Virus record (IMG/VR): IMGVR_UViG_3300027784_000004
Reading direction: 5' to 3' (one strand)
Source: a virus
DNA length: 64,000 bases
Shown here: in pieces, positions 31,575 through 48,221 of the stretch
Position numbering within the stretch: position 1 is the stretch's first letter
Layout of the letters: each line of letters opens with the position of its first letter
The notes under the pieces: generated by a model
What the model was told of the DNA's origin: nothing
The model's input: only the letters and a program-made list of their open reading frames with translations
The model's database searches: none
Program-made: the position numbers and the translations under genes

Positions 31575-32552
31575 CTAGCCAATAGCGTTTTGAAAAAATA
31601 CGCCTAAATCATCAGCGACTACTTTCATATCCATTGCTAGTTCGCCTTCAATTCTGTCTGCGCCTAATTGCTCCATTCTAAATTGTCTAATTCTATTACC
31701 CATAGCCCCTGCGCCTAAGAAACCAGCCCAGCTAAAGGTATAACCTGCGCTAGGTTGTAATATAGAAGGTTGCGGGTTTGCATAAGCTAGTAAAGCGTGT
31801 TTGCCAAATACAAAATTCATATCAGCATCAGCGCCAGCATTAGCTACATTTTCTGTACCCCACGCTATTAATACCCTATCTACATCAAACAAGCCTGCTA
31901 GTATATCACTAGTAACAACGCCAGTTTGTGTATATTTTATTCTATCTAATATATCAGCGTGATTACTAAGCGCTGTATATACATAAGGTGATAAAACTAG
32001 TACATTAGGCTTAAAGCCTGTAAGTTCTGCAACTTCAACACTAGCATCACGAATATCTTCAATAGGTGTACTATCAGCCTGATCCCATTGTTTAAACTCA
32101 CCTGCTGTAGGTGTGCCAGTAACGCCATCTAGTTCAGTTGCCCAAACACCAGCTGTGAAGTAGCTATTAGCCCATAACTTTTCACGCTTTAATAACATCA
32201 TTTGTGTTACCCACTCTGTAGCATCTCTATCCATATTGATAACATCATCAGCATTAGCCCTAATTTGGTCATCAACATCTTTATGAATAGCAAAAACATC
32301 AGCATAATAAGTAGGTGTGTTATCAAGCTTGTAGCCACCGCCTGCGCTTTCAGTCCCAGGCGCTCTTTTCTTAGCTACATCACGAAACCAATCTTCCCTT
32401 AAATATTTATAGTACCTATCACTTTTTTTCTGTACAGGTATGTTTGGAAAAACCTCTGTAGCAATAAAGTTTTCTGCATCTTGCATATATGCAATACTTA
32501 TTTGTGTTAGAGGTTGATTAACATGTACCTGATTAATAGTAGGATTTGCCAT
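31575..32552 (-). CDS. Major capsid protein (HK97 fold)
   Basis: HVNQPLTQISIAY, IATEVFP.IPV; position after decoration and scaffold genes. Confidence 0.9.
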   Translation of the reverse strand: MANPTINQVHVNQPLTQISIAYMQDAENFIATEVFPNIPVQKKSDRYYKYLREDWFRDVAKKRAPGTESAGGGYKLDNTPTYYADVFAIHKDVDDQIRANADDVINMDRDATEWVTQMMLLKREKLWANSYFTAGVWATELDGVTGTPTAGEFKQWDQADSTPIEDIRDASVEVAELTGFKPNVLVLSPYVYTALSNHADILDRIKYTQTGVVTSDILAGLFDVDRVLIAWGTENVANAGADADMNFVFGKHALLAYANPQPSILQPSAGYTFSWAGFLGAGAMGNRIRQFRMEQLGADRIEGELAMDMKVVADDLGVFFQNAIG

Positions 32553-33034: not shown

Positions 33035-34093
33035 TTATTTGCTGTTTTCTTCTTGCATATACTGCAAGTACAATTCAGGGTTTTCAGTAATAATTTTAGA
33101 TACCGCCTGTGCTTCACTTATATTGGGATTATCTTTTGCATATTCCTTAGCAGACTTTTCAATCTTAGCCCATGCACCGCTAGTACCTTTACTATCACTA
33201 CCAACCTCCTTAAATAGTTCGCTCTCATTTATCTGCCCATTTAATGCTTTTAGCAAGCCTTCAAGCTGTGTATATTCATCAGGTGCTTTCTCGTGTATGC
33301 TCTTTAATAACTTACCAAATTCAGCGCTTTCAACAGGCAAAGTGCCAAATTCTGTTTTAGCTTTATCAATGAACTCTTTTTCAATTTTTTCATCTTCAAG
33401 CCTACTAGCTTTTTCAGCAGTTTCTTTATGCTCTTTATAAAGCTTCTCAATGATAGGCTTAACATTATCAGGCATCTTTTCTAAGCTTTTTTCTATATCC
33501 ATTTCCATTTCATCACCCCCTGTGCCAGCTTGTTCTTCTGCATCAGCTAATACTTCTAATACATCAACAGGTGATAAACCCTCATACTCTCTACTAATAA
33601 CACCAGCAAGTACAGTTCTATCTTGCGGTTCTGTAGGGTCTATTGCATTAATAAACTCTAATGCTTCGCCAGTAGTAATATCCCATATACCAGCAAGTTC
33701 ACCAGCTAAACTTCTTCTATCCATTTCCTGTTTATTGATAAAAGAAAGCAACTCTTTTTCATCATAATCACCAGCTTTAGAAAGAAGTTTAGCCATGCTA
33801 CCTAGCAAATCTTTTGGTAATACATCAGCATAGGTTTGCACTATTTTAAGCATATTCCTAAGCGCATAAGCGCCTTCATCATTAATATCAATCTCTTTTA
33901 TTACCTTTTCTACCTCACTTTCATTTTCAATTTTACTCTCTAATATTTCTTTAATAATATTATCCATGTTGACACCTCCGTTTTTTGCTTTTAACATTAA
34001 AAATTCTCTTTCATTAGCAGGCTCACCTACAATAGATACCTCATAAACCTTAGCATCTAATATCTCACTAACATCTTTTTTAAGTTCAGCCAT
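33035..34093 (-). CDS. Capsid scaffolding protein
   Basis: N-terminal EVSIVGEPAN motif, coiled coil, LFKEVGS. Confidence 0.75.
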   Translation of the reverse strand: MAELKKDVSEILDAKVYEVSIVGEPANEREFLMLKAKNGGVNMDNIIKEILESKIENESEVEKVIKEIDINDEGAYALRNMLKIVQTYADVLPKDLLGSMAKLLSKAGDYDEKELLSFINKQEMDRRSLAGELAGIWDITTGEALEFINAIDPTEPQDRTVLAGVISREYEGLSPVDVLEVLADAEEQAGTGGDEMEMDIEKSLEKMPDNVKPIIEKLYKEHKETAEKASRLEDEKIEKEFIDKAKTEFGTLPVESAEFGKLLKSIHEKAPDEYTQLEGLLKALNGQINESELFKEVGSDSKGTSGAWAKIEKSAKEYAKDNPNISEAQAVSKIITENPELYLQYMQEENSK

Positions 34094-34185: not shown

Positions 34186-36306
34186 TTACCTATTAACACG
34201 CTTACCCATAGCCCCTATAGAAAAGCCTGTAAAATCACCCCTTTTAATTTTTTTCCATTTTTCATTATCTAATATCTTAACAGCCATAACCCAACTACCT
34301 TTTTTAACATTGCCTTTGCCTAGTTTAAAGCTAACAGGCGCTATATAACTTTCTAATATTCTAGCTTCACTAAATGTTTTTTTGTGACTTAAGCCTATAG
34401 TTTGTGAATTTAACATATAGAAATGACAGCTTTTCTCAATTTCTTCTGCACTCATAATATCATTATGTGCATCTATTGTATCAGGCTCTAAAACTACACC
34501 ATAGATTATTTGTTTATCATCAATACTTTTAACTATTTTACATTCAATCTTTTTTTTTACCTTGCCAGTATCATCATCACCTTTATTATCTTCTAAGCTT
34601 TTTTTAACATGCTTAATTTTTCTATCAACTTCACCAAAATCACCCATTTTATATAGCGCTACAGGGTGTGGTAGTTTAAAATCTGCATCTTTTAATAAAT
34701 GCCTGTAAGCCTTATTACCTAAAGCTACAATATATTTAGGATTTACTTCTTTAATCTTGCTTATAAACCAATCGCTATAGCTTATAATTTCATCATTAGT
34801 TGGTTGTCTTAAGTAGCCATATTTATTATGCTTTGCTACGGGTACTAAATTAATTATATAAGTATCTTCTTTACTTAAGCCTAAAGGCTCTAAGTATTTA
34901 TCTTTAAATATCTTACCTGCTTTACCTGTAAGTGGCTCTTTTCTTAATACATCTTTATCACTAGGTGATGCACCTATAAAAGCTATACTAGCATTTTCAT
35001 CACCATATGGTGGTACATCAACTACCTGTAATGGTGAAGGTACATTTACATCACCTACGGTTATCTTCTTTTGTTTTTTATCTTCTCTATCAGGTGAAGT
35101 AGGTTTTTTGATGTAATAAGTAGCCACCTTTTTATGCTCTTTTTCAACATCTATAAAGGCTTTGAAAACTTTTATAAGCCTATCTTCGCTAGCTTGCATT
35201 ATAGATGTTTTATAGTGTTCTATCGCCTTTCTTTCTGCCATATATGCAAGCATAAAGTTTTCTTTATCGCTTTGTGCGCACTCTACATCATCAGGCAAAT
35301 CAGGTATTTCAACACCCATCATTTCTGCTAATTCATCTTTATGTTTTTCTTCGTGCCTTGCAAGCCTTCTAAAATAGCTTTCACTTATCCTATTTTCTGC
35401 ATTATCTGCCATGCATCTATAAACTGATTCACAATATGCTTCTAATTCTAAAGCCTTTTGTGTATTTTCAGCGCTAACCTCACTTAAACTTATTTGCTCA
35501 TAGTGTATATAATCTTTAGGTATTACTAAATATTTTTCTTTTACGCCACAATGTGCGCATCTATCAGGCTTTTTATAGCCAAGATATACATAACCGCAAA
35601 TATCGCAACGCCACGCCTTAAATTTTTTATATTTATATTTATCTTTATCAATAGGATTATTCCATGGAACGCTTATTTGTTCATCATCAAATTCTTCTGC
35701 CATTCTATCATATAATTCTTCAACTCTAGCCCTTACCCTATCTTCATCATCAGCAGGTATATCAACACCGCCCATAGCCCCTTGCAGTACACCAGCTATA
35801 GTAAATACTGCACTAGGTATTATATGTGGCTCACCATCTATAATATCAACATATGGTAGCTTGTAACCGCCTATTTGTTCTTGCAGTTGTTCATCATACC
35901 AAAGGTGTGCTTGCCTAAATTGCGCCCATTGTTCGCTATCCCATTGCTCAAAATCACCATCATTACCTATATATTGCCTAACTCTACCGCCAGCGCCAAC
36001 AGCATCTTCCATATCCCAAGTTCTATCTCTGCTAGCTAAAGGGTAATCAGGCAAAGTAGGTACAGCTTTATCTATATCATCATCAGGGTTATCACCTTCT
36101 ATATAATCTTCCCAATAACTTAAAGCCACCTCATAGCGCTGTTCTTCATCAGGGAAATCTTCAAGCGCTTCTTCATCAGCCATAAACCTATTTATAAAAT
36201 CTTCTCTTGTTTCTTCTGCTCTAGGTTCAGGCTTAAAAATAGCATCTGTATCATTAGTGCTAAAAGTATCTAAAAAATTCTTAAATAACTTGCTAATATT
36301 ACCCAC
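34186..36306 (-). CDS. Multidomain prohead protease: two phage head-associated domains, rubredoxin/ferritin-like unit, UDG-like domain, XkdF-type serine protease
   Basis: CDIC/CAHC, ExxH di-iron motifs, IAFIGASP..EPLTGKAG, YGVVLEPD..DAH.D..GFSIG. Confidence 0.85.
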   Translation of the reverse strand: MGNISKLFKNFLDTFSTNDTDAIFKPEPRAEETREDFINRFMADEEALEDFPDEEQRYEVALSYWEDYIEGDNPDDDIDKAVPTLPDYPLASRDRTWDMEDAVGAGGRVRQYIGNDGDFEQWDSEQWAQFRQAHLWYDEQLQEQIGGYKLPYVDIIDGEPHIIPSAVFTIAGVLQGAMGGVDIPADDEDRVRARVEELYDRMAEEFDDEQISVPWNNPIDKDKYKYKKFKAWRCDICGYVYLGYKKPDRCAHCGVKEKYLVIPKDYIHYEQISLSEVSAENTQKALELEAYCESVYRCMADNAENRISESYFRRLARHEEKHKDELAEMMGVEIPDLPDDVECAQSDKENFMLAYMAERKAIEHYKTSIMQASEDRLIKVFKAFIDVEKEHKKVATYYIKKPTSPDREDKKQKKITVGDVNVPSPLQVVDVPPYGDENASIAFIGASPSDKDVLRKEPLTGKAGKIFKDKYLEPLGLSKEDTYIINLVPVAKHNKYGYLRQPTNDEIISYSDWFISKIKEVNPKYIVALGNKAYRHLLKDADFKLPHPVALYKMGDFGEVDRKIKHVKKSLEDNKGDDDTGKVKKKIECKIVKSIDDKQIIYGVVLEPDTIDAHNDIMSAEEIEKSCHFYMLNSQTIGLSHKKTFSEARILESYIAPVSFKLGKGNVKKGSWVMAVKILDNEKWKKIKRGDFTGFSIGAMGKRVNR

Positions 36307-37622: not shown

Positions 37623-38558
37623 TTAATCAACTGGAAAACTATAGTCAACACCGCATCTACATCTTACATGCATTGGTGGTTCATCTACTAAACCATAAGG
37701 CGTATCAAACATTCTATCAATACCAACTTCAACACCTATCATTTCCATGCATAAAGGACATAGCCTATCATCAGGTGTTACTATCCATGCCTTTTTACCT
37801 AATGCCCTATTAAGCACGCCAGCCCCTACGCCTGCCCTTACTAGGCTTGAATACCCTTCATTTGCATATAAGATACTTTCATTATCGCCAAATCTTTGCG
37901 CCCTATATTCTAAAGAGTTTTCAGCATAGTTATTAGTAAGGCTTTCTATTCTATCAAAAGTTATTTCTTGTTCTATTAAATTACGCCTGTAGTTATTAAC
38001 TGCCCTTGTTTGCCTTTGTGTTAACCCTATTATAGGCAATAAAAAAGATGCTTTTCTAAAAGCACCTACATCATCTTCATTATTTATCTGCCTTAAGCCA
38101 TCTTCAAAAGCCACCCTACTAGAATTTCTCATATAATTAACTAGTTCATTTTCTCTCGTATTTATCCAGTTTTGTATATCGCCATTCATTTCAAAATCAA
38201 AATCTCTCATAGTTGGTGGTAAATGTATTTTCATTTCATTGCCAGCTTGTAAAATTGTTTGCTCAATAGGTTCTCTAATATTTCTTAAATTATTTTCATA
38301 TATCTGCCAATCCACTTCACGCTGTATCATATTCAAATTAGCATCTGCAAAGCCTTGCCTTACTCTTGATACTCTTACATTATCTTTAAGCGAATTGGTA
38401 GCTAAAAGCAAAACACTTGCTAATACAGGTGCTATATTATCAGCTATAGAATGTATCTTTTGATAAGTTGGTACATCAGCTTGTTCATCTACTCTATTAG
38501 CCCCTAAACTTTCCATTTCCCTTATTTCTACATCTTCTTGTTTAGTAATCCATACCAT
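37623..38558 (-). CDS. Minor head protein (MuF / SPP1 gp7-like)
   Basis: KKAWIVTPDDRLCPLC...PPMHVRCRC; start moved to MVWIT. Confidence 0.85.
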   Translation of the reverse strand: MVWITKQEDVEIREMESLGANRVDEQADVPTYQKIHSIADNIAPVLASVLLLATNSLKDNVRVSRVRQGFADANLNMIQREVDWQIYENNLRNIREPIEQTILQAGNEMKIHLPPTMRDFDFEMNGDIQNWINTRENELVNYMRNSSRVAFEDGLRQINNEDDVGAFRKASFLLPIIGLTQRQTRAVNNYRRNLIEQEITFDRIESLTNNYAENSLEYRAQRFGDNESILYANEGYSSLVRAGVGAGVLNRALGKKAWIVTPDDRLCPLCMEMIGVEVGIDRMFDTPYGLVDEPPMHVRCRCGVDYSFPVD

Positions 38559-39846
38559 TTTTATGCTCACCGCCACCATTTTCAGTAGGCAAATTAGCAA
38601 TTCTTCTAAGATAGTTTTCTAAATCTTCATCAGGGAAAATAGTAGCGCCTGCCCCTGATAGTGTATTTATATATTCTGCTAAATCTTTTAGATTAATTTT
38701 TCTTATTTTACCAGCTTTTATTTTAGGTAATCTTTCTAAATCAAAGCCATTTATTTTAAATAGTTTTGGTATCGCTTTTCTATTAAACTCCGCTTCTATA
38801 CTATCTAACCAAGTTTTTAATGCAGTAACAAATAAATCAGTTTTATCATTACTAAGCGCAAAGCTACCTGTGCCACTTTGCCCAAGTAATAAAAAATCAG
38901 CCATTACGCTCATAGCAATTCTTTTATCATATCTTTCTACTATTTCACTTGTATCAAATTGCCTGCTACCGCCAGTACTCATTAATTGTAAATCATACAT
39001 TTTATTACCCTGTTCATCATGTACTAGTGGGAAAACTATACCTTCTTGTTCATCACGCCTTATATTAGTTACTATATCTCGTACAGTTTCAAAAATAGCC
39101 TTTTCTTCTGTGCTAGCATTTTCATCTAATATTTCAGGTGGAACCCATGCAACGGGTAAACCTGCTAAATCTCTTTCAATACCTATACCTTCAATTTCTT
39201 CTATGTTCTTTTTAAAATACCATGGTCTGTAGCTGTTTCTTAAAATACTTCTGCCTTCGGGATTGCCTTTTTGTGAAGTTGTTTTAAAAAGTAAGGCTTT
39301 TTCCATTGGTATAGTGCGAATTTTAAAATTAGGTGGTTGTATCTGTGCCATTGCTACCACATGCCCATTATCGCCAAATTGCCATTTATACAATGTATCT
39401 TGCGCCCTAATAGCTATCTTTTCCCAGCCAACAAGCCCATCACCAAACCTGCTACTTTTACTTTCATCTTCTTTTAAGCCTAAGCGCTTTTTATATACCA
39501 ACTCGAAAAAACTCCAGCCATATGTTAGCATAGATAATATTTCTGATATTAATTCTTCCCATGTAATACTCATATCCTGCATACAACTATTAACAAAATT
39601 AGCCTTTTCAACATCTTCTTCTTCTTCGCTAAATGGTTTAACCTTCCAATCTACTTGCCTTATTAGCTTTTCAATAGCAAATAAAATAGCGCCTACTATA
39701 GGGTCATTATCGCTCATTTCCTTAAAGATTCTAGTGCGCTTTTCTGTGCTAATTAATTCAGGTAAAAATTCTTCATATATCAAGCCAGCATATCTTTTTA
39801 AACCAGTATCACCTAGTTCTCGCATATTTAAATTTCTGTTAGGCAA
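38542..39846 (-). CDS. Portal protein
   Basis: GNPEGRSILR..YRPWYFK, GIGIERDLAG.P; position. Confidence 0.9.
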   Translation of the reverse strand: MPNRNLNMRELGDTGLKRYAGLIYEEFLPELISTEKRTRIFKEMSDNDPIVGAILFAIEKLIRQVDWKVKPFSEEEEDVEKANFVNSCMQDMSITWEELISEILSMLTYGWSFFELVYKKRLGLKEDESKSSRFGDGLVGWEKIAIRAQDTLYKWQFGDNGHVVAMAQIQPPNFKIRTIPMEKALLFKTTSQKGNPEGRSILRNSYRPWYFKKNIEEIEGIGIERDLAGLPVAWVPPEILDENASTEEKAIFETVRDIVTNIRRDEQEGIVFPLVHDEQGNKMYDLQLMSTGGSRQFDTSEIVERYDKRIAMSVMADFLLLGQSGTGSFALSNDKTDLFVTALKTWLDSIEAEFNRKAIPKLFKINGFDLERLPKIKAGKIRKINLKDLAEYINTLSGAGATIFPDEDLENYLRRIANLPTENGGGEHKNGMDY

Positions 39847-43839: not shown

Positions 43840-45132
43840 TTATGGCTTGTTTTTATTATTTAAATTATAGTTTTCATATTTTTCATTAGGCTCTTTTAGT
43901 CTATGTAGTAGCTTGTTTTGCTTTAAATATAGCTTAAAGTTATCAAAGCTATCAGCTTTATTTGTATCATCAGGCTGTTTACCAAGCCTAATAGCTTCAT
44001 CAGGGTTGCACCTATGAAATACCCCTCTAAAAGCACTTCTTGCCATGCTCCTTGTAGGTAATACTCTAATTCTAGTGTTCTTACTACTAAAAACTTTAAA
44101 AGCCCTTTTAGTATCACAAAAATTTAGATTAATTTCTTTATCATGATAAGGTGTGTGTGGTATAGGGTCAAAGTATGTAAGTTTTACTATCATTTTAGGT
44201 GATTTATCACTATCAGCAGGTAATATATTAGTGAATTTTTCTACATCTTTCATACTCCAATCATCTTTACCCACGATAAAAAATAATTCGCAAGTTTGTT
44301 TATGCTCTTTAGTTTGTTTGATAAGCTTTCTAATATTTTCATCTTTAATAGGCTTACCATAATCTTTGCGCTCTTTCTCACTCCAACCTTCTATGCCAAA
44401 GTGTAACATATTAGCCTTATATCTTAATGGCTCTATAATATAATCTTCTACCCTAACGCTCTGTGCGCTAACTGCCTTACTCTCTATAACAGTATTACTA
44501 TCATTAGTTATTAAAGTTATCTTACCATATTTCTTTTTTTCTATACAATTAACTACTTTTTTAAGCCTGTGCTTATTAACTTCTTGTAACGGTTGAATCC
44601 AACTAGTAGCGCAAAACTTACATTTTCTTTTGCACCCCTTAGCGCTTAAATAATAAAATCTATTCCTGCCAGTTAACTTTACTAAAGGGAAATCTTTAAA
44701 TACTATATTATAACTAGGTGTAACTTTATCATTTTCACTTTTCATAACACAATCTAAATTTAAAGCCTTATTATAATCTTCACCCCACGCCTTAATAAAA
44801 TCATAGCCTTCACCCACTACAACATAATCAACCCATGCAAAATAAGGTATAGCAAAATAACTTTCAAAACCACCCATAACTATAGGCTTTTCAGGGTTTT
44901 GCTCTCTTAACTTAATTAATACATTCAAATCATCTACATCACAAATACTAACCCAAATAAAATCAGCATCTTTAACACAATCTACTAAATTAACACCAAA
45001 CTTATTGCATAAATGCCTAAGCGCACTCATGCTATATAGGTTTATAGATTTACTATGTGAAGTTAAAAATACTTTAGGTGTTGATAAACCAGTTTGCAAA
45101 CCTTTCAAGCGCTTCATCTTCTTCATCACCAA
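43840..45132 (-). CDS. Radical SAM enzyme with an N-terminal cobalamin-binding-like domain
   Basis: GCKRKCKFC (CxxxCxxC), IVMGG...DYVVVGEG, FGIEG, P.PHTP. Confidence 0.9.
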   Translation of the reverse strand: MVMKKMKRLKGLQTGLSTPKVFLTSHSKSINLYSMSALRHLCNKFGVNLVDCVKDADFIWVSICDVDDLNVLIKLREQNPEKPIVMGGFESYFAIPYFAWVDYVVVGEGYDFIKAWGEDYNKALNLDCVMKSENDKVTPSYNIVFKDFPLVKLTGRNRFYYLSAKGCKRKCKFCATSWIQPLQEVNKHRLKKVVNCIEKKKYGKITLITNDSNTVIESKAVSAQSVRVEDYIIEPLRYKANMLHFGIEGWSEKERKDYGKPIKDENIRKLIKQTKEHKQTCELFFIVGKDDWSMKDVEKFTNILPADSDKSPKMIVKLTYFDPIPHTPYHDKEINLNFCDTKRAFKVFSSKNTRIRVLPTRSMARSAFRGVFHRCNPDEAIRLGKQPDDTNKADSFDNFKLYLKQNKLLHRLKEPNEKYENYNLNNKNKP

Positions 45133-45706
45133 ATTTATTTTTTATTTTTTCAATAACTGCGCTAACTAAATCATAATCTAATACGCTAGAAAATGTACCA
45201 ATACTTATAACTAAATTAGTTTTGCCTGCTTGCATCATTCTTTTATCTCTAGTACTTTTTTCATTACTATTATCTACTATTTCAGGTAAATCACTCATAA
45301 TACCATCTATTTCATCTAAATTAAAACCAGTATCAAGCAAATTAATATCATCTTCATATTCTAACTTTTCAAATTCTATAGCTAATAATTCCATATCCCA
45401 ATCACTTTCAGCTACTTTATTATCAGCAATTCTATAAGCCCTTACCTGTGCATCATTTAAATCAACTCTTTTTATAACGGGTATTTCTTTTAACTCTAAC
45501 TTCTTACTAGCAAAATATCTGCCATGACCTGCTATTATCTCATTTTTCTTATCAATTATTATAGGCACGTTAAACCCATAATTTTTTATACTACTAGCTA
45601 TTTTATTAATCTGCTCTTTCTTATGCTCTTTAGGGTTTTCGTTATATGGTATAATTTTATCAATATCAATCATTTCAACTTTTATATTATCTTTAGTATC
45701 TGCCAT
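45074..45706 (-). CDS. ParB/sulfiredoxin N-terminal domain protein (no methyltransferase domain)
   Basis: IPYNENP, SIKNYGFNVPII, IIAGHGR, AYRIADNKVAE. Confidence 0.9.
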   Translation of the reverse strand: MADTKDNIKVEMIDIDKIIPYNENPKEHKKEQINKIASSIKNYGFNVPIIIDKKNEIIAGHGRYFASKKLELKEIPVIKRVDLNDAQVRAYRIADNKVAESDWDMELLAIEFEKLEYEDDINLLDTGFNLDEIDGIMSDLPEIVDNSNEKSTRDKRMMQAGKTNLVISIGTFSSVLDYDLVSAVIEKIKNKFGDEEDEALERFANWFINT

Positions 45707-47822: not shown

Positions 47823-48221
47823 TCAGCCAGTATCTATATTATATATATCTTTATTTAAATAATTATTAACAGCAATTTTATTTTTATCTCTAGGCTCATA
47901 ACCTTCATAAAGCCAACGCTCAACACTTCTAACACTTACGCCTATATCATCAGCTAATTCACTTGCTCTTATTTGTTCATCAACTAAAGCATCATATAGC
48001 CCTTTATCTCTTATTTGCCACTTACTAAGCCTTTTAAATATCTTTTCATCTTTTTCAGGTGGTGGCTCGCCATTCTTTTTATGATAAGAAATATAATCTC
48101 TGCAATCTCTGCAAGTAAGATAAGATTTATCTTCTATTTTACCACCGCACCTAGTACATAAACCTTTTTCTTTTCTTTTTTCTCTTAAGTTTTTCATCAT
48201 TATAGCGCCACTTTTACCCAT
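47823..48221 (-). CDS. Zn-finger (CxxC..CxxC) plus XRE HTH protein
   Basis: GLCTRCG...CRDC; ELADDIGVSVRSVERW. Confidence 0.7.
   Translation of the reverse strand: MGKSGAIMMKNLREKRKEKGLCTRCGGKIEDKSYLTCRDCRDYISYHKKNGEPPPEKDEKIFKRLSKWQIRDKGLYDALVDEQIRASELADDIGVSVRSVERWLYEGYEPRDKNKIAVNNYLNKDIYNIDTG

Follow-up and report, generated by a model that had tools for sequence, protein, structure and literature searches.

A rubrerythrin-like domain in the prohead-protease polyprotein of a salt-lake phage as a candidate redox cargo of the phage head

Why would a phage gene that lies among those for head assembly carry a rubrerythrin? The question is raised by IMG/VR virus record IMGVR_UViG_3300027784_000004, a stretch of 64,000 nucleotides (hereafter the window), in which an open reading frame (ORF) on the minus strand, at 34186-36306, encodes a 706-aa protein, P0001, with a unit of the reverse rubrerythrin type in its interior (35113-35622). 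Classed by its domain matches, P0001 is a head-module prohead-protease polyprotein, and we put at roughly one half (0.5) the probability that the unit is a functional metal-binding rubrerythrin module carried into the head as redox cargo on the XkdF-type protease. From its N-terminus, the protein consists of a ChaB-like hairpin, a domain here called N2, the rubrerythrin unit, a domain resembling uracil-DNA glycosylases (UDG), and the XkdF-type protease. Its features are as follows.

34186..36306, minus strand: head polyprotein ORF P0001, 706 aa, GTG start
36097..36306, minus strand: acidic helical N-terminal segment, residues 1-70, ChaB-like in relatives, isoelectric point 4.1
35653..36093, minus strand: N2 domain, residues 72-218 (alignment A4; AlphaFold model)
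35530..35616, minus strand: rubredoxin-like Cys4 knuckle, residues 231-259, PF21349 above cut-off
35110..35481, minus strand: ferritin-like four-helix bundle, residues 276-399, with E289, E319/H322, E358, E388/H391 and second-shell Y296 and Y365
35029..35067, minus strand: linker motif ITVGDVNVPSPLQ, residues 414-426, resembling the N-terminal arm of the major capsid protein (MCP)
34651..35019, minus strand: divergent UDG-superfamily domain, residues 430-552, family-4-like, PF03167 66 bits
34195..34539, minus strand: XkdF-type (Peptidase_S78_2) prohead protease, residues 590-704, PF14550

The earlier note on this DNA had read CDIC...CAHC knuckles and a four-helix bundle with E/ExxH/E/ExxH ligands at 35113-35622, and every motif that it quoted is present. 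The segment maps exactly to residues 229-398: CDIC occupies residues 234-237 and CAHC residues 250-253, giving C234, C237, C250 and C253 with 12 residues between the pairs (CxxC-12-CxxC); ALELE ends at E289, EEKH supplies E319/H322, MAERK contains E358, and EKEH supplies E388/H391. When the whole of P0001 was compared with Pfam, RUBY_RBDX (PF21349) scored 28.3 bits against a cut-off of 26.5 (residues 232-259) and Rubrerythrin (PF02915) scored 23.5 bits against 22.8 (residues 282-394); for the excised unit the scores rose to 31.0 and 30.8 bits, a margin of about 4.5 to 8 bits. When 1.84 billion representatives were searched exhaustively with HMMER, 266 relatives were found, most of them free proteins 170-200 aa long in which the knuckle likewise precedes the bundle, while the longer matches were unrelated multi-knuckle membrane proteins or peptidase fusions and not head proteins.

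Across a 60-sequence alignment of this family, the four Cys, H322 and E388 were invariant (60/60), E289, Y296, E319, E358, Y365 and H391 were kept in at least 95%, and all ten metal residues were present in 57 of the 60 members. The four Cys and six di-iron ligands were also invariant in six fused relatives of 52-64% identity, in which only 61 of 175 columns were invariant. A search of the PDB with the single sequence matched the knuckle only, so that a profile was needed; the profile built from the 60 family members found Desulfovibrio vulgaris rubrerythrin as the best solved relative (E 5e-9), aligning E289/Y296 with its E20/Y27 and the two ExxH motifs with E53/H56 and E128/H131. These sequence comparisons confirm the unit as a real, intact-looking domain, far beyond what chance would produce. 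The premise of the earlier note, an intact-looking unit of the reverse rubrerythrin type, is upheld by both Pfam models above cut-off, the ten residues in 57/60 members, and the confidence of the predicted structure.

The AlphaFold (AF2) model of the unit, computed from the 60-sequence alignment, has a predicted local distance difference test score (pLDDT) of 97.9 and a predicted template modelling score of 0.91, and consists of a small beta-knuckle followed by four long helices. A structure search (VIA) that covered 48,161 PDB representatives matched it to mini-bacterioferritin (Z 18.9), the Dps-like protein PA4880 (Z 18.6) and nigerythrin (Z 15.8, root-mean-square deviation 1.4 A over 122 residues). 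In both Foldseek and VIA, ferritins, Dps and bacterioferritins ranked with or above rubrerythrins, a mixed ranking from which the fold cannot settle whether the protein is a peroxidase or a ferroxidase. A homodimer was predicted with a score of 0.73, against 0.01 for the best control, a mark reached by 20 of 30 proteins solved as one-chain pairs and by 1 of 23 solved as single chains. In the model, the interface includes the knuckle and the helix B/D residues that flank the ExxH motifs, an arrangement that would be compatible with electron transfer between subunits.

The unit, residues 226-400 (175 residues), has the layout of reverse rubrerythrins, with an N-terminal rubredoxin domain and a C-terminal di-iron bundle. 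Judged from its sequence, it falls outside the equivalog class of classical rubrerythrin, since the second helix-C Glu is missing and the score against the NCBIfam equivalog NF045767 is far below the cut-off (26.1 bits against 200). In classical rubrerythrin the rubredoxin domain is C-terminal and helix C carries E94xxE97, whereas here the knuckle precedes the bundle and the alignment places in helix C a single conserved Glu, 7 residues before the conserved Tyr, mirroring helix A, with the E94xxE97 pair absent. The aligned position of E97, 5 residues before the conserved Tyr, is K360 in P0001 and Glu in 9 of the 60 relatives. The second helix-C Glu (E97) of classical rubrerythrin allows redox-linked iron movement. 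The alignment therefore assigns to the unit a six-residue ligand set of the bacterioferritin type, joined to a rubredoxin centre.

The C-terminus of P0001 identifies the protein to which the unit is attached. Residues 590-704 scored 110 bits against PF14550 (cut-off 24) and matched phrog_3017, head maturation protease, with an E of 1e-39; D612, H641, S653 and the GFSIG motif (S696) were invariant in seven relatives and are candidate catalytic residues. At the other end, residues 1-70 align with the N-termini of two relatives, P0008 and P0181, both of which carry PF06150 ChaB. The UDG-like domain follows the rubrerythrin unit after a linker at about residues 400-430; against the NCBIfam family-4/UdgX models it scored 56-61 bits (cut-offs 125-250), and it contains no Cys in residues 430-552, hence none of the Fe-S cysteines; it may be catalytically altered or a binder of DNA lesions.

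The gene order places P0001 in the head module. On one strand, the genes run from large terminase, virion protein, Mu-type portal, MuF-like protein, HNH nuclease and DUF6143 to the polyprotein, a 352-aa protein, a 122-aa protein and the MCP; the members of this order that define the module are listed here.

38542-39846, minus strand: Mu-type portal, upstream neighbour of the polyprotein that defines the head module
37623-38600, minus strand: MuF-like head morphogenesis protein, upstream neighbour of the polyprotein that defines the head module
33035..34093, minus strand: scaffold-like protein, 352 aa, directly downstream of the polyprotein, syntenic in the relatives L001 and L003
31575..32552, minus strand: MCP, phrog_1005, E 4e-93

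Lying between portal/MuF and scaffold/MCP, the polyprotein gene fills the slot of the prohead protease. The earlier note had called P0001 a virion protein; membership in the head module as a prohead-protease polyprotein supports this label in part, and presence in the mature virion is putative. The segment that encodes the rubrerythrin unit has a G+C content of 34.5%, matching that of the other head genes, so it is not a recent insertion, and recent foreign insertion was rejected as an origin of the unit, there being no sign of it.

We found that the fusion recurs, but rarely. Six clusters in 5.8 billion proteins carry the unit inside a long protein, all of them ending in XkdF, and a seventh fused cluster, P0181, came from the representative search, so that the rubrerythrin-protease fusion is rare, with about seven protein clusters in 5.8 billion. 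P0003-P0005, from independent samples, have the same four-domain architecture as P0001; P0006 is otherwise similar but is without the rubrerythrin unit; P0007 combines just this unit with the protease, without UDG and N2; and P0008 and P0181 combine ChaB, unit and protease. By these comparisons, the cargo on the XkdF-type protease is modular. In L001, L003 and L007 the polyprotein gene remains syntenic with those for portal, MuF, scaffold and a 325-aa capsid protein. In P0181 (L007 5782-6975), which has a long branch in the tree, E289, E319 and E388 are replaced by A, H and V while the four Cys are kept, and the unit of this protein may be degenerate or repurposed.

A second kind of head module also contains the unit. 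In L012 (IMGVR_UViG_3300027784_000803), an S78 (HK97-type) protease and a PF05065 capsid protein flank a unit of 57% identity, which follows immediately on a 655-aa ORF containing two N2 domains and is in the -1 frame behind an A10 run. In the region 3640-3720 of L012, the A10 run ends the 655-aa ORF and the unit has no ATG, GTG or TTG start upstream of its first CxxC pair, the nearest start being GTG 3704, downstream of that pair. The ORF with two N2 domains and the unit may either be fused, through programmed slippage or behind a homopolymer assembly error, or be merely adjacent; whichever explanation of the frame holds, N2 and the unit are linked in this HK97-type head module. The arrangement means that N2 and the unit move as companions between head modules of two unrelated kinds.

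The eight head-linked units grouped with eight free proteins in one clade of a maximum-likelihood tree, with support of 98/89. The contigs of three free members show signs of phage: a phage repair exonuclease is encoded close to P0030, a portal two genes away from P0031, and, close to P0026, a protein of a PHROG family without known function. The unit thus looks like a member of a phage-borne branch of the rubrerythrin superfamily, the checked members of which are the eight head-linked units with P0026, P0030 and P0031. Among isolated-phage records, tblastn with the unit gave a single weak match, to a fecal-virome record, at 24.7% identity, and none of the 50,697 phage records is of an isolated phage with the rubrerythrin-protease fusion. 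Representative prokaryote genomes held no close relative, the best full-length matches being of 24-28% identity in metagenome-assembled genomes of Selenomonadales and Acutalibacteraceae.

The domain that accompanies the unit in both kinds of module, N2, is about 135 aa long, well conserved, and absent from Pfam and PHROGs. Its alignment (A4) comprises 22 copies from S78-protease, MCP, MuF-toxin and NUDIX-DUF2213 fusions. N2 occurs directly after S78 proteases, in MuF proteins with ADP-ribosyltransferase toxins, between NUDIX and DUF2213, and between the protease and capsid domains of protease-capsid fusions, which is the place of the scaffolding domain. The AF2 model of N2 has a pLDDT of 91.7; against the PDB its best Z was 3.5, with no solved structural relative, and against BFVD it gave viral matches only. 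From these settings, N2 may be a general head-internal adaptor or a handle for cargo.

A short motif connects the polyprotein with the capsid protein. PT-x-x-(Q/D/N)-V-(H/N/S)-(V/I)-x-x-P stands at the extreme N-terminus of the MCP in all four related phages; in the window, MCP residues 4-14 (PTINQVHVNQP, 32511-32543) carry the motif in common with the linker of the polyprotein. It occurs once in each related XkdF polyprotein at varying positions, being N-terminal in P0003 and P0005, and it agrees by lineage between the two proteins, both L007 proteins having GDVHV. The motif was absent from the lactococcal XkdF phage and from L012. As read from these sequences, it could be a candidate cleavage site of the protease or a mimic for targeting to, or binding of, the capsid.

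The N-terminal region of about 35 residues of the 352-aa protein (VYEVSIVGEPANEREFLMLK) resembles the segment that precedes the XkdF domain in the lactococcal head protease (VTHVSYVDKAANKKQFFLTK). This N-terminus is conserved in L001 and L003, and here it is on the scaffold-like protein and not on the protease; by its sequence it may act as a strand tethering the scaffold to the protease. Homology of the 352-aa protein to the scaffold tail of lactococcal XkdF was considered and rejected, the two having no significant similarity.

The phage itself is uncultivated and represents an undescribed lineage. A salt-lake metagenome is the sole sequencing run in which the stretch occurs; the G+C content of the window is 30%, and its long ORFs, from about 270 to 63900, are all on the minus strand. 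No tRNAs were found in the window, and a megablast search with 15 kb of the head module found no nucleotide match in 50,697 phage records, on which its status as an undescribed lineage is based. Sporulation-type genes were annotated in the window by reading of the sequence, and a 430-aa protein beside the terminase has a sub-threshold radical-SAM match (25.2 bits, cut-off 29.5); together they hint at an anaerobic spore-forming Firmicute as host. A ParB-N protein (42.8 bits) overlaps this 430-aa protein at 43840-45706, and in the relative L001 the corresponding slot is occupied by a ParB-N6/N4 methyltransferase.

Among cellular enzymes, the closest comparison is with reverse rubrerythrins, the characterised members of which are NADH-linked reductases of H2O2 and O2 with NROR and rubredoxin as donors, and which are important for the tolerance of low O2 by an anaerobe (PMC7482061). 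Those of clostridia (C. difficile revRbr1/2 and C. acetobutylicum Rbr3A/B) have, like the unit, an N-terminal CxxC-12-CxxC and a two-ExxH bundle, and are likewise of about 20 kDa with about 25% identity to canonical bundles (PMC7482061). However, they are free, sigma-B-controlled enzymes of the cell, whereas the unit is embedded in a head polyprotein of a phage, and the linker between knuckle and bundle is longer here, the distance from the Cys4 to the first ExxH being 66 residues in the unit and 42 in revRbr. The unit also has the equivalents of E20/Y27, E53xxH56 and E128xxH131 and the Cys4 spacing of D. vulgaris rubrerythrin (1B71/1RYT), and its bundle is the part that superposes on nigerythrin (1YUX). 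Phages of anaerobic digesters have been reported to carry rubrerythrin (PF02915) as an auxiliary gene that clusters with bacterial homologues (PMC13644194); those are free genes from an anaerobic habitat, and fusion to a head protein is not described there.

Phages fuse enzymes to head-assembly proteins so that these ride in the capsid, and the cargo described has been mostly toxins, anti-restriction proteins and enzymes that target nucleotides. In polyvalent proteins, unrelated enzymatic domains on one polypeptide are anchored to a head-morphogenesis domain and are presumed to be packaged and delivered along with the DNA (PMC5512222). P0001 shows this pattern, with several unrelated domains and a head-morphogenesis anchor encoded in the head module, and its multi-domain cargo layout is common to polyvalent proteins and MuF-anchored toxins (Iyer et al. 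2017, PMC5512222) and to T4 internal proteins; N2 is common to P0001 and the MuF-ADP-ribosyltransferase proteins. The anchors differ, being the XkdF protease in P0001 and MuF in polyvalent proteins, and the cargo of P0001 belongs to a redox or DNA-care class rather than being an obvious toxin or anti-defence protein. The survey of polyvalent proteins makes no mention of rubrerythrin, ferritin-like domains or XkdF (PMC5512222), and nothing in the literature that we searched linked rubrerythrin or ferritin-like domains with a prohead protease. Enzyme cargo on head proteins is a known theme (PMC5512222), and a rubrerythrin on a prohead protease would be a new type of cargo.

Within the XkdF family of prohead proteases, which includes PBSX XkdF and whose PF14550 model the C-terminus of P0001 matches, one described protein is gp33 of Lactococcus phage 28201, a head maturation protease at the same genome position and 41% identical to the C-terminal 115 residues of P0001. 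The lactococcal protein has its protease at the N-terminus, followed by a scaffold-like tail, whereas the protease of P0001 comes at the C-terminus after some 590 residues of cargo, and in this phage the scaffold-like protein has a gene of its own. The few papers mentioning XkdF in phages that we found were genome reports and one comparative survey, and contained no experiments on the family.

Encapsulins offer a further parallel, since their cargo (EncFtn, EncB/C, IMEF) is, as here, a di-iron protein of the ferritin superfamily associated with a shell of the HK97 lineage. The unit has weak profile similarities to EncB, EncC and EncFtn-like models, and the short peptide described above is a candidate for mediating association with the shell, as in encapsulins. 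However, the genome here is that of a tailed phage with terminase, portal and tail genes, its capsid gene is part of a complete head-tail module and the capsid is not an encapsulin cargo shell, the cargo is covalently joined to the protease instead of using a separate shell-binding loading peptide, and the bundle, unlike encapsulin cargo, has all four helices within one monomer and is joined to a rubredoxin domain.

These data suggest the following scheme for a head-loaded redox module. The Fe(Cys)4 rubredoxin-type knuckle and the di-iron bundle would act as a metal module, for which the in-silico support is strong, resting on the identity of the domain, its intact ligands, its fold and a conservation of the purifying kind, and the unit probably works as a head-to-tail dimer. 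N2, the rubrerythrin unit and the UDG-like domain would enter the procapsid as cargo on the protease: since this enzyme is a built-in part of the procapsid, whatever is fused to it would be carried into the head. We infer such loading from the architecture and from the recurrence of the unit in two kinds of head module; the protease domain and N2, which is otherwise found in head-internal polyproteins, both argue for a place of the polyprotein inside the head. The protease would then probably cut the cargo free at the linkers, after which the cargo might, speculatively, be retained or ejected. By analogy with known rubrerythrins, the likeliest chemistry would be two-electron reduction of H2O2 and O2 at the di-iron site, with electrons supplied by way of the rubredoxin centre; with bacterioferritin and Dps-like proteins as the nearest folds of the model, iron-sink or ferroxidase chemistry is equally conceivable. 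A search of the window for a phage-encoded rubredoxin or other Cys4 redox partner found none, the only other ORF with CxxC...CxxC (47823-48221) being zinc-ribbon-like in appearance. Since an external electron chain is needed and no partner was found in the window, action in a sealed capsid would be stoichiometric only, as a sink for iron and peroxide, and catalysis would need the host cytoplasm. Turnover would accordingly be expected inside infected cells, with host reductants, either at a late stage of infection or once the unit has been ejected along with the DNA. The protective roles proposed in the earlier note, in which the unit would shield packaged DNA from Fenton damage or buffer oxidative stress at infection, are speculative.

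Several observations weigh against head-loaded redox cargo. P0181 keeps the knuckle and bundle after the loss of three di-iron ligands, which means that catalysis is not universally required and that at least one lineage manages with a non-catalytic role. On other phage contigs, free members of the clade lie outside head modules, so that the chemistry does not require a capsid. Prohead proteases are often degraded and lost from heads. To these are added the missing second helix-C Glu with the low equivalog score, the modelled structure, which alone cannot separate a peroxidase from a ferroxidase, and the lack of a phage-encoded electron donor in the window.

The alternative that survives best, although we regard it as unlikely, is that the unit is a cytoplasmic antioxidant of late infection, resembling an auxiliary metabolic gene and active in the anaerobic host cell ahead of assembly or separately from it, in which case the fusion to an abundantly expressed head protease would only secure high late expression and the unit would not be a functional component of the capsid. 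The free clade members away from head genes would fit such a role, such as those in L026, beside a repair exonuclease, and in L005, beside a nucleoside deoxyribosyltransferase, as would the requirement of catalysis for host reductants and the PF02915 auxiliary genes of digester phages (PMC13644194). However, a free gene would serve in the cytoplasm equally well, and the unit is linked to two types of head module (XkdF/Mu-like and S78/HK97-like), both times with N2.

The reading of redox cargo can also be extended to a head that is an enzyme-filled compartment of the HK97 fold, in which the unit, covalently loaded by way of the maturation protease, stays with the DNA and shields the genome of a phage of anaerobes against damage driven by iron and peroxide, or is injected and removes O2 and H2O2 in the next host; this fuller version we consider doubtful. 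Somewhat more doubtful is a head iron sink or ferroxidase resembling Dps, bacterioferritin or encapsulin cargo, which would use H2O2 or O2 to oxidise co-packaged Fe2+ and hold it, preventing Fenton damage without turnover. The closest folds (mini-bacterioferritin and Dps-like PA4880), the E/ExxH/E/ExxH pattern of bacterioferritin, without the seventh Glu specific to rubrerythrin, and the weak matches to EncB and EncC are all consistent with it, and a stoichiometric sink could suffice for the finite iron of a closed capsid. Nevertheless, the best solved relatives in sequence are rubrerythrins, there is no indication of a mineral core or oligomeric cage, and the invariant rubredoxin knuckle, which ferritins and Dps are without, points to the delivery of electrons to the di-iron site.

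Less probable again is a structural or scaffolding module, in which the bundle and a zinc-ribbon-like knuckle would serve as a spacer or core filler, with metal only stabilising the fold. P0181, in which A, H and V stand for E289, E319 and E388 while the unit and its four Cys persist, could be such a module, scaffolding proteins are typically helical, and P0006 dispenses with the unit altogether; but six of the seven fused lineages, L012 and 57/60 family members keep the six ligands and both second-shell Tyr at 25-64% identity, which one would not expect of a spacer, and a separate scaffold-like gene follows the polyprotein. That the motifs arose by chance, or are the remnant of a decayed, functionless domain, as the whole-protein Pfam scores barely above their cut-offs might suggest, is refuted by the 266 representatives, the invariant ligands, the high-confidence AF2 model and the rubrerythrin profile match (E 5e-9).

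If the unit is indeed head-loaded, a metal-dependent redox enzyme of the ferritin superfamily would represent a different class of head cargo. The genes for polyprotein, scaffold and capsid are small in number and lie next to one another, which makes the idea accessible by heterologous expression, without culturing the phage. The finding bears on whether procapsids of the HK97 fold house enzymatic cargo as encapsulins do; a 2026 paper proposed that procapsids might hold such cargo and termed this an experimentally testable hypothesis (PMC13669383), and the locus described here, if the reading is true, would be a concrete candidate for a procapsid with enzymatic cargo that bridges phage capsids and iron-handling encapsulins (PMC13669383). 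It bears equally on how the phages of strict anaerobes may survive, or exploit, exposure to oxygen.

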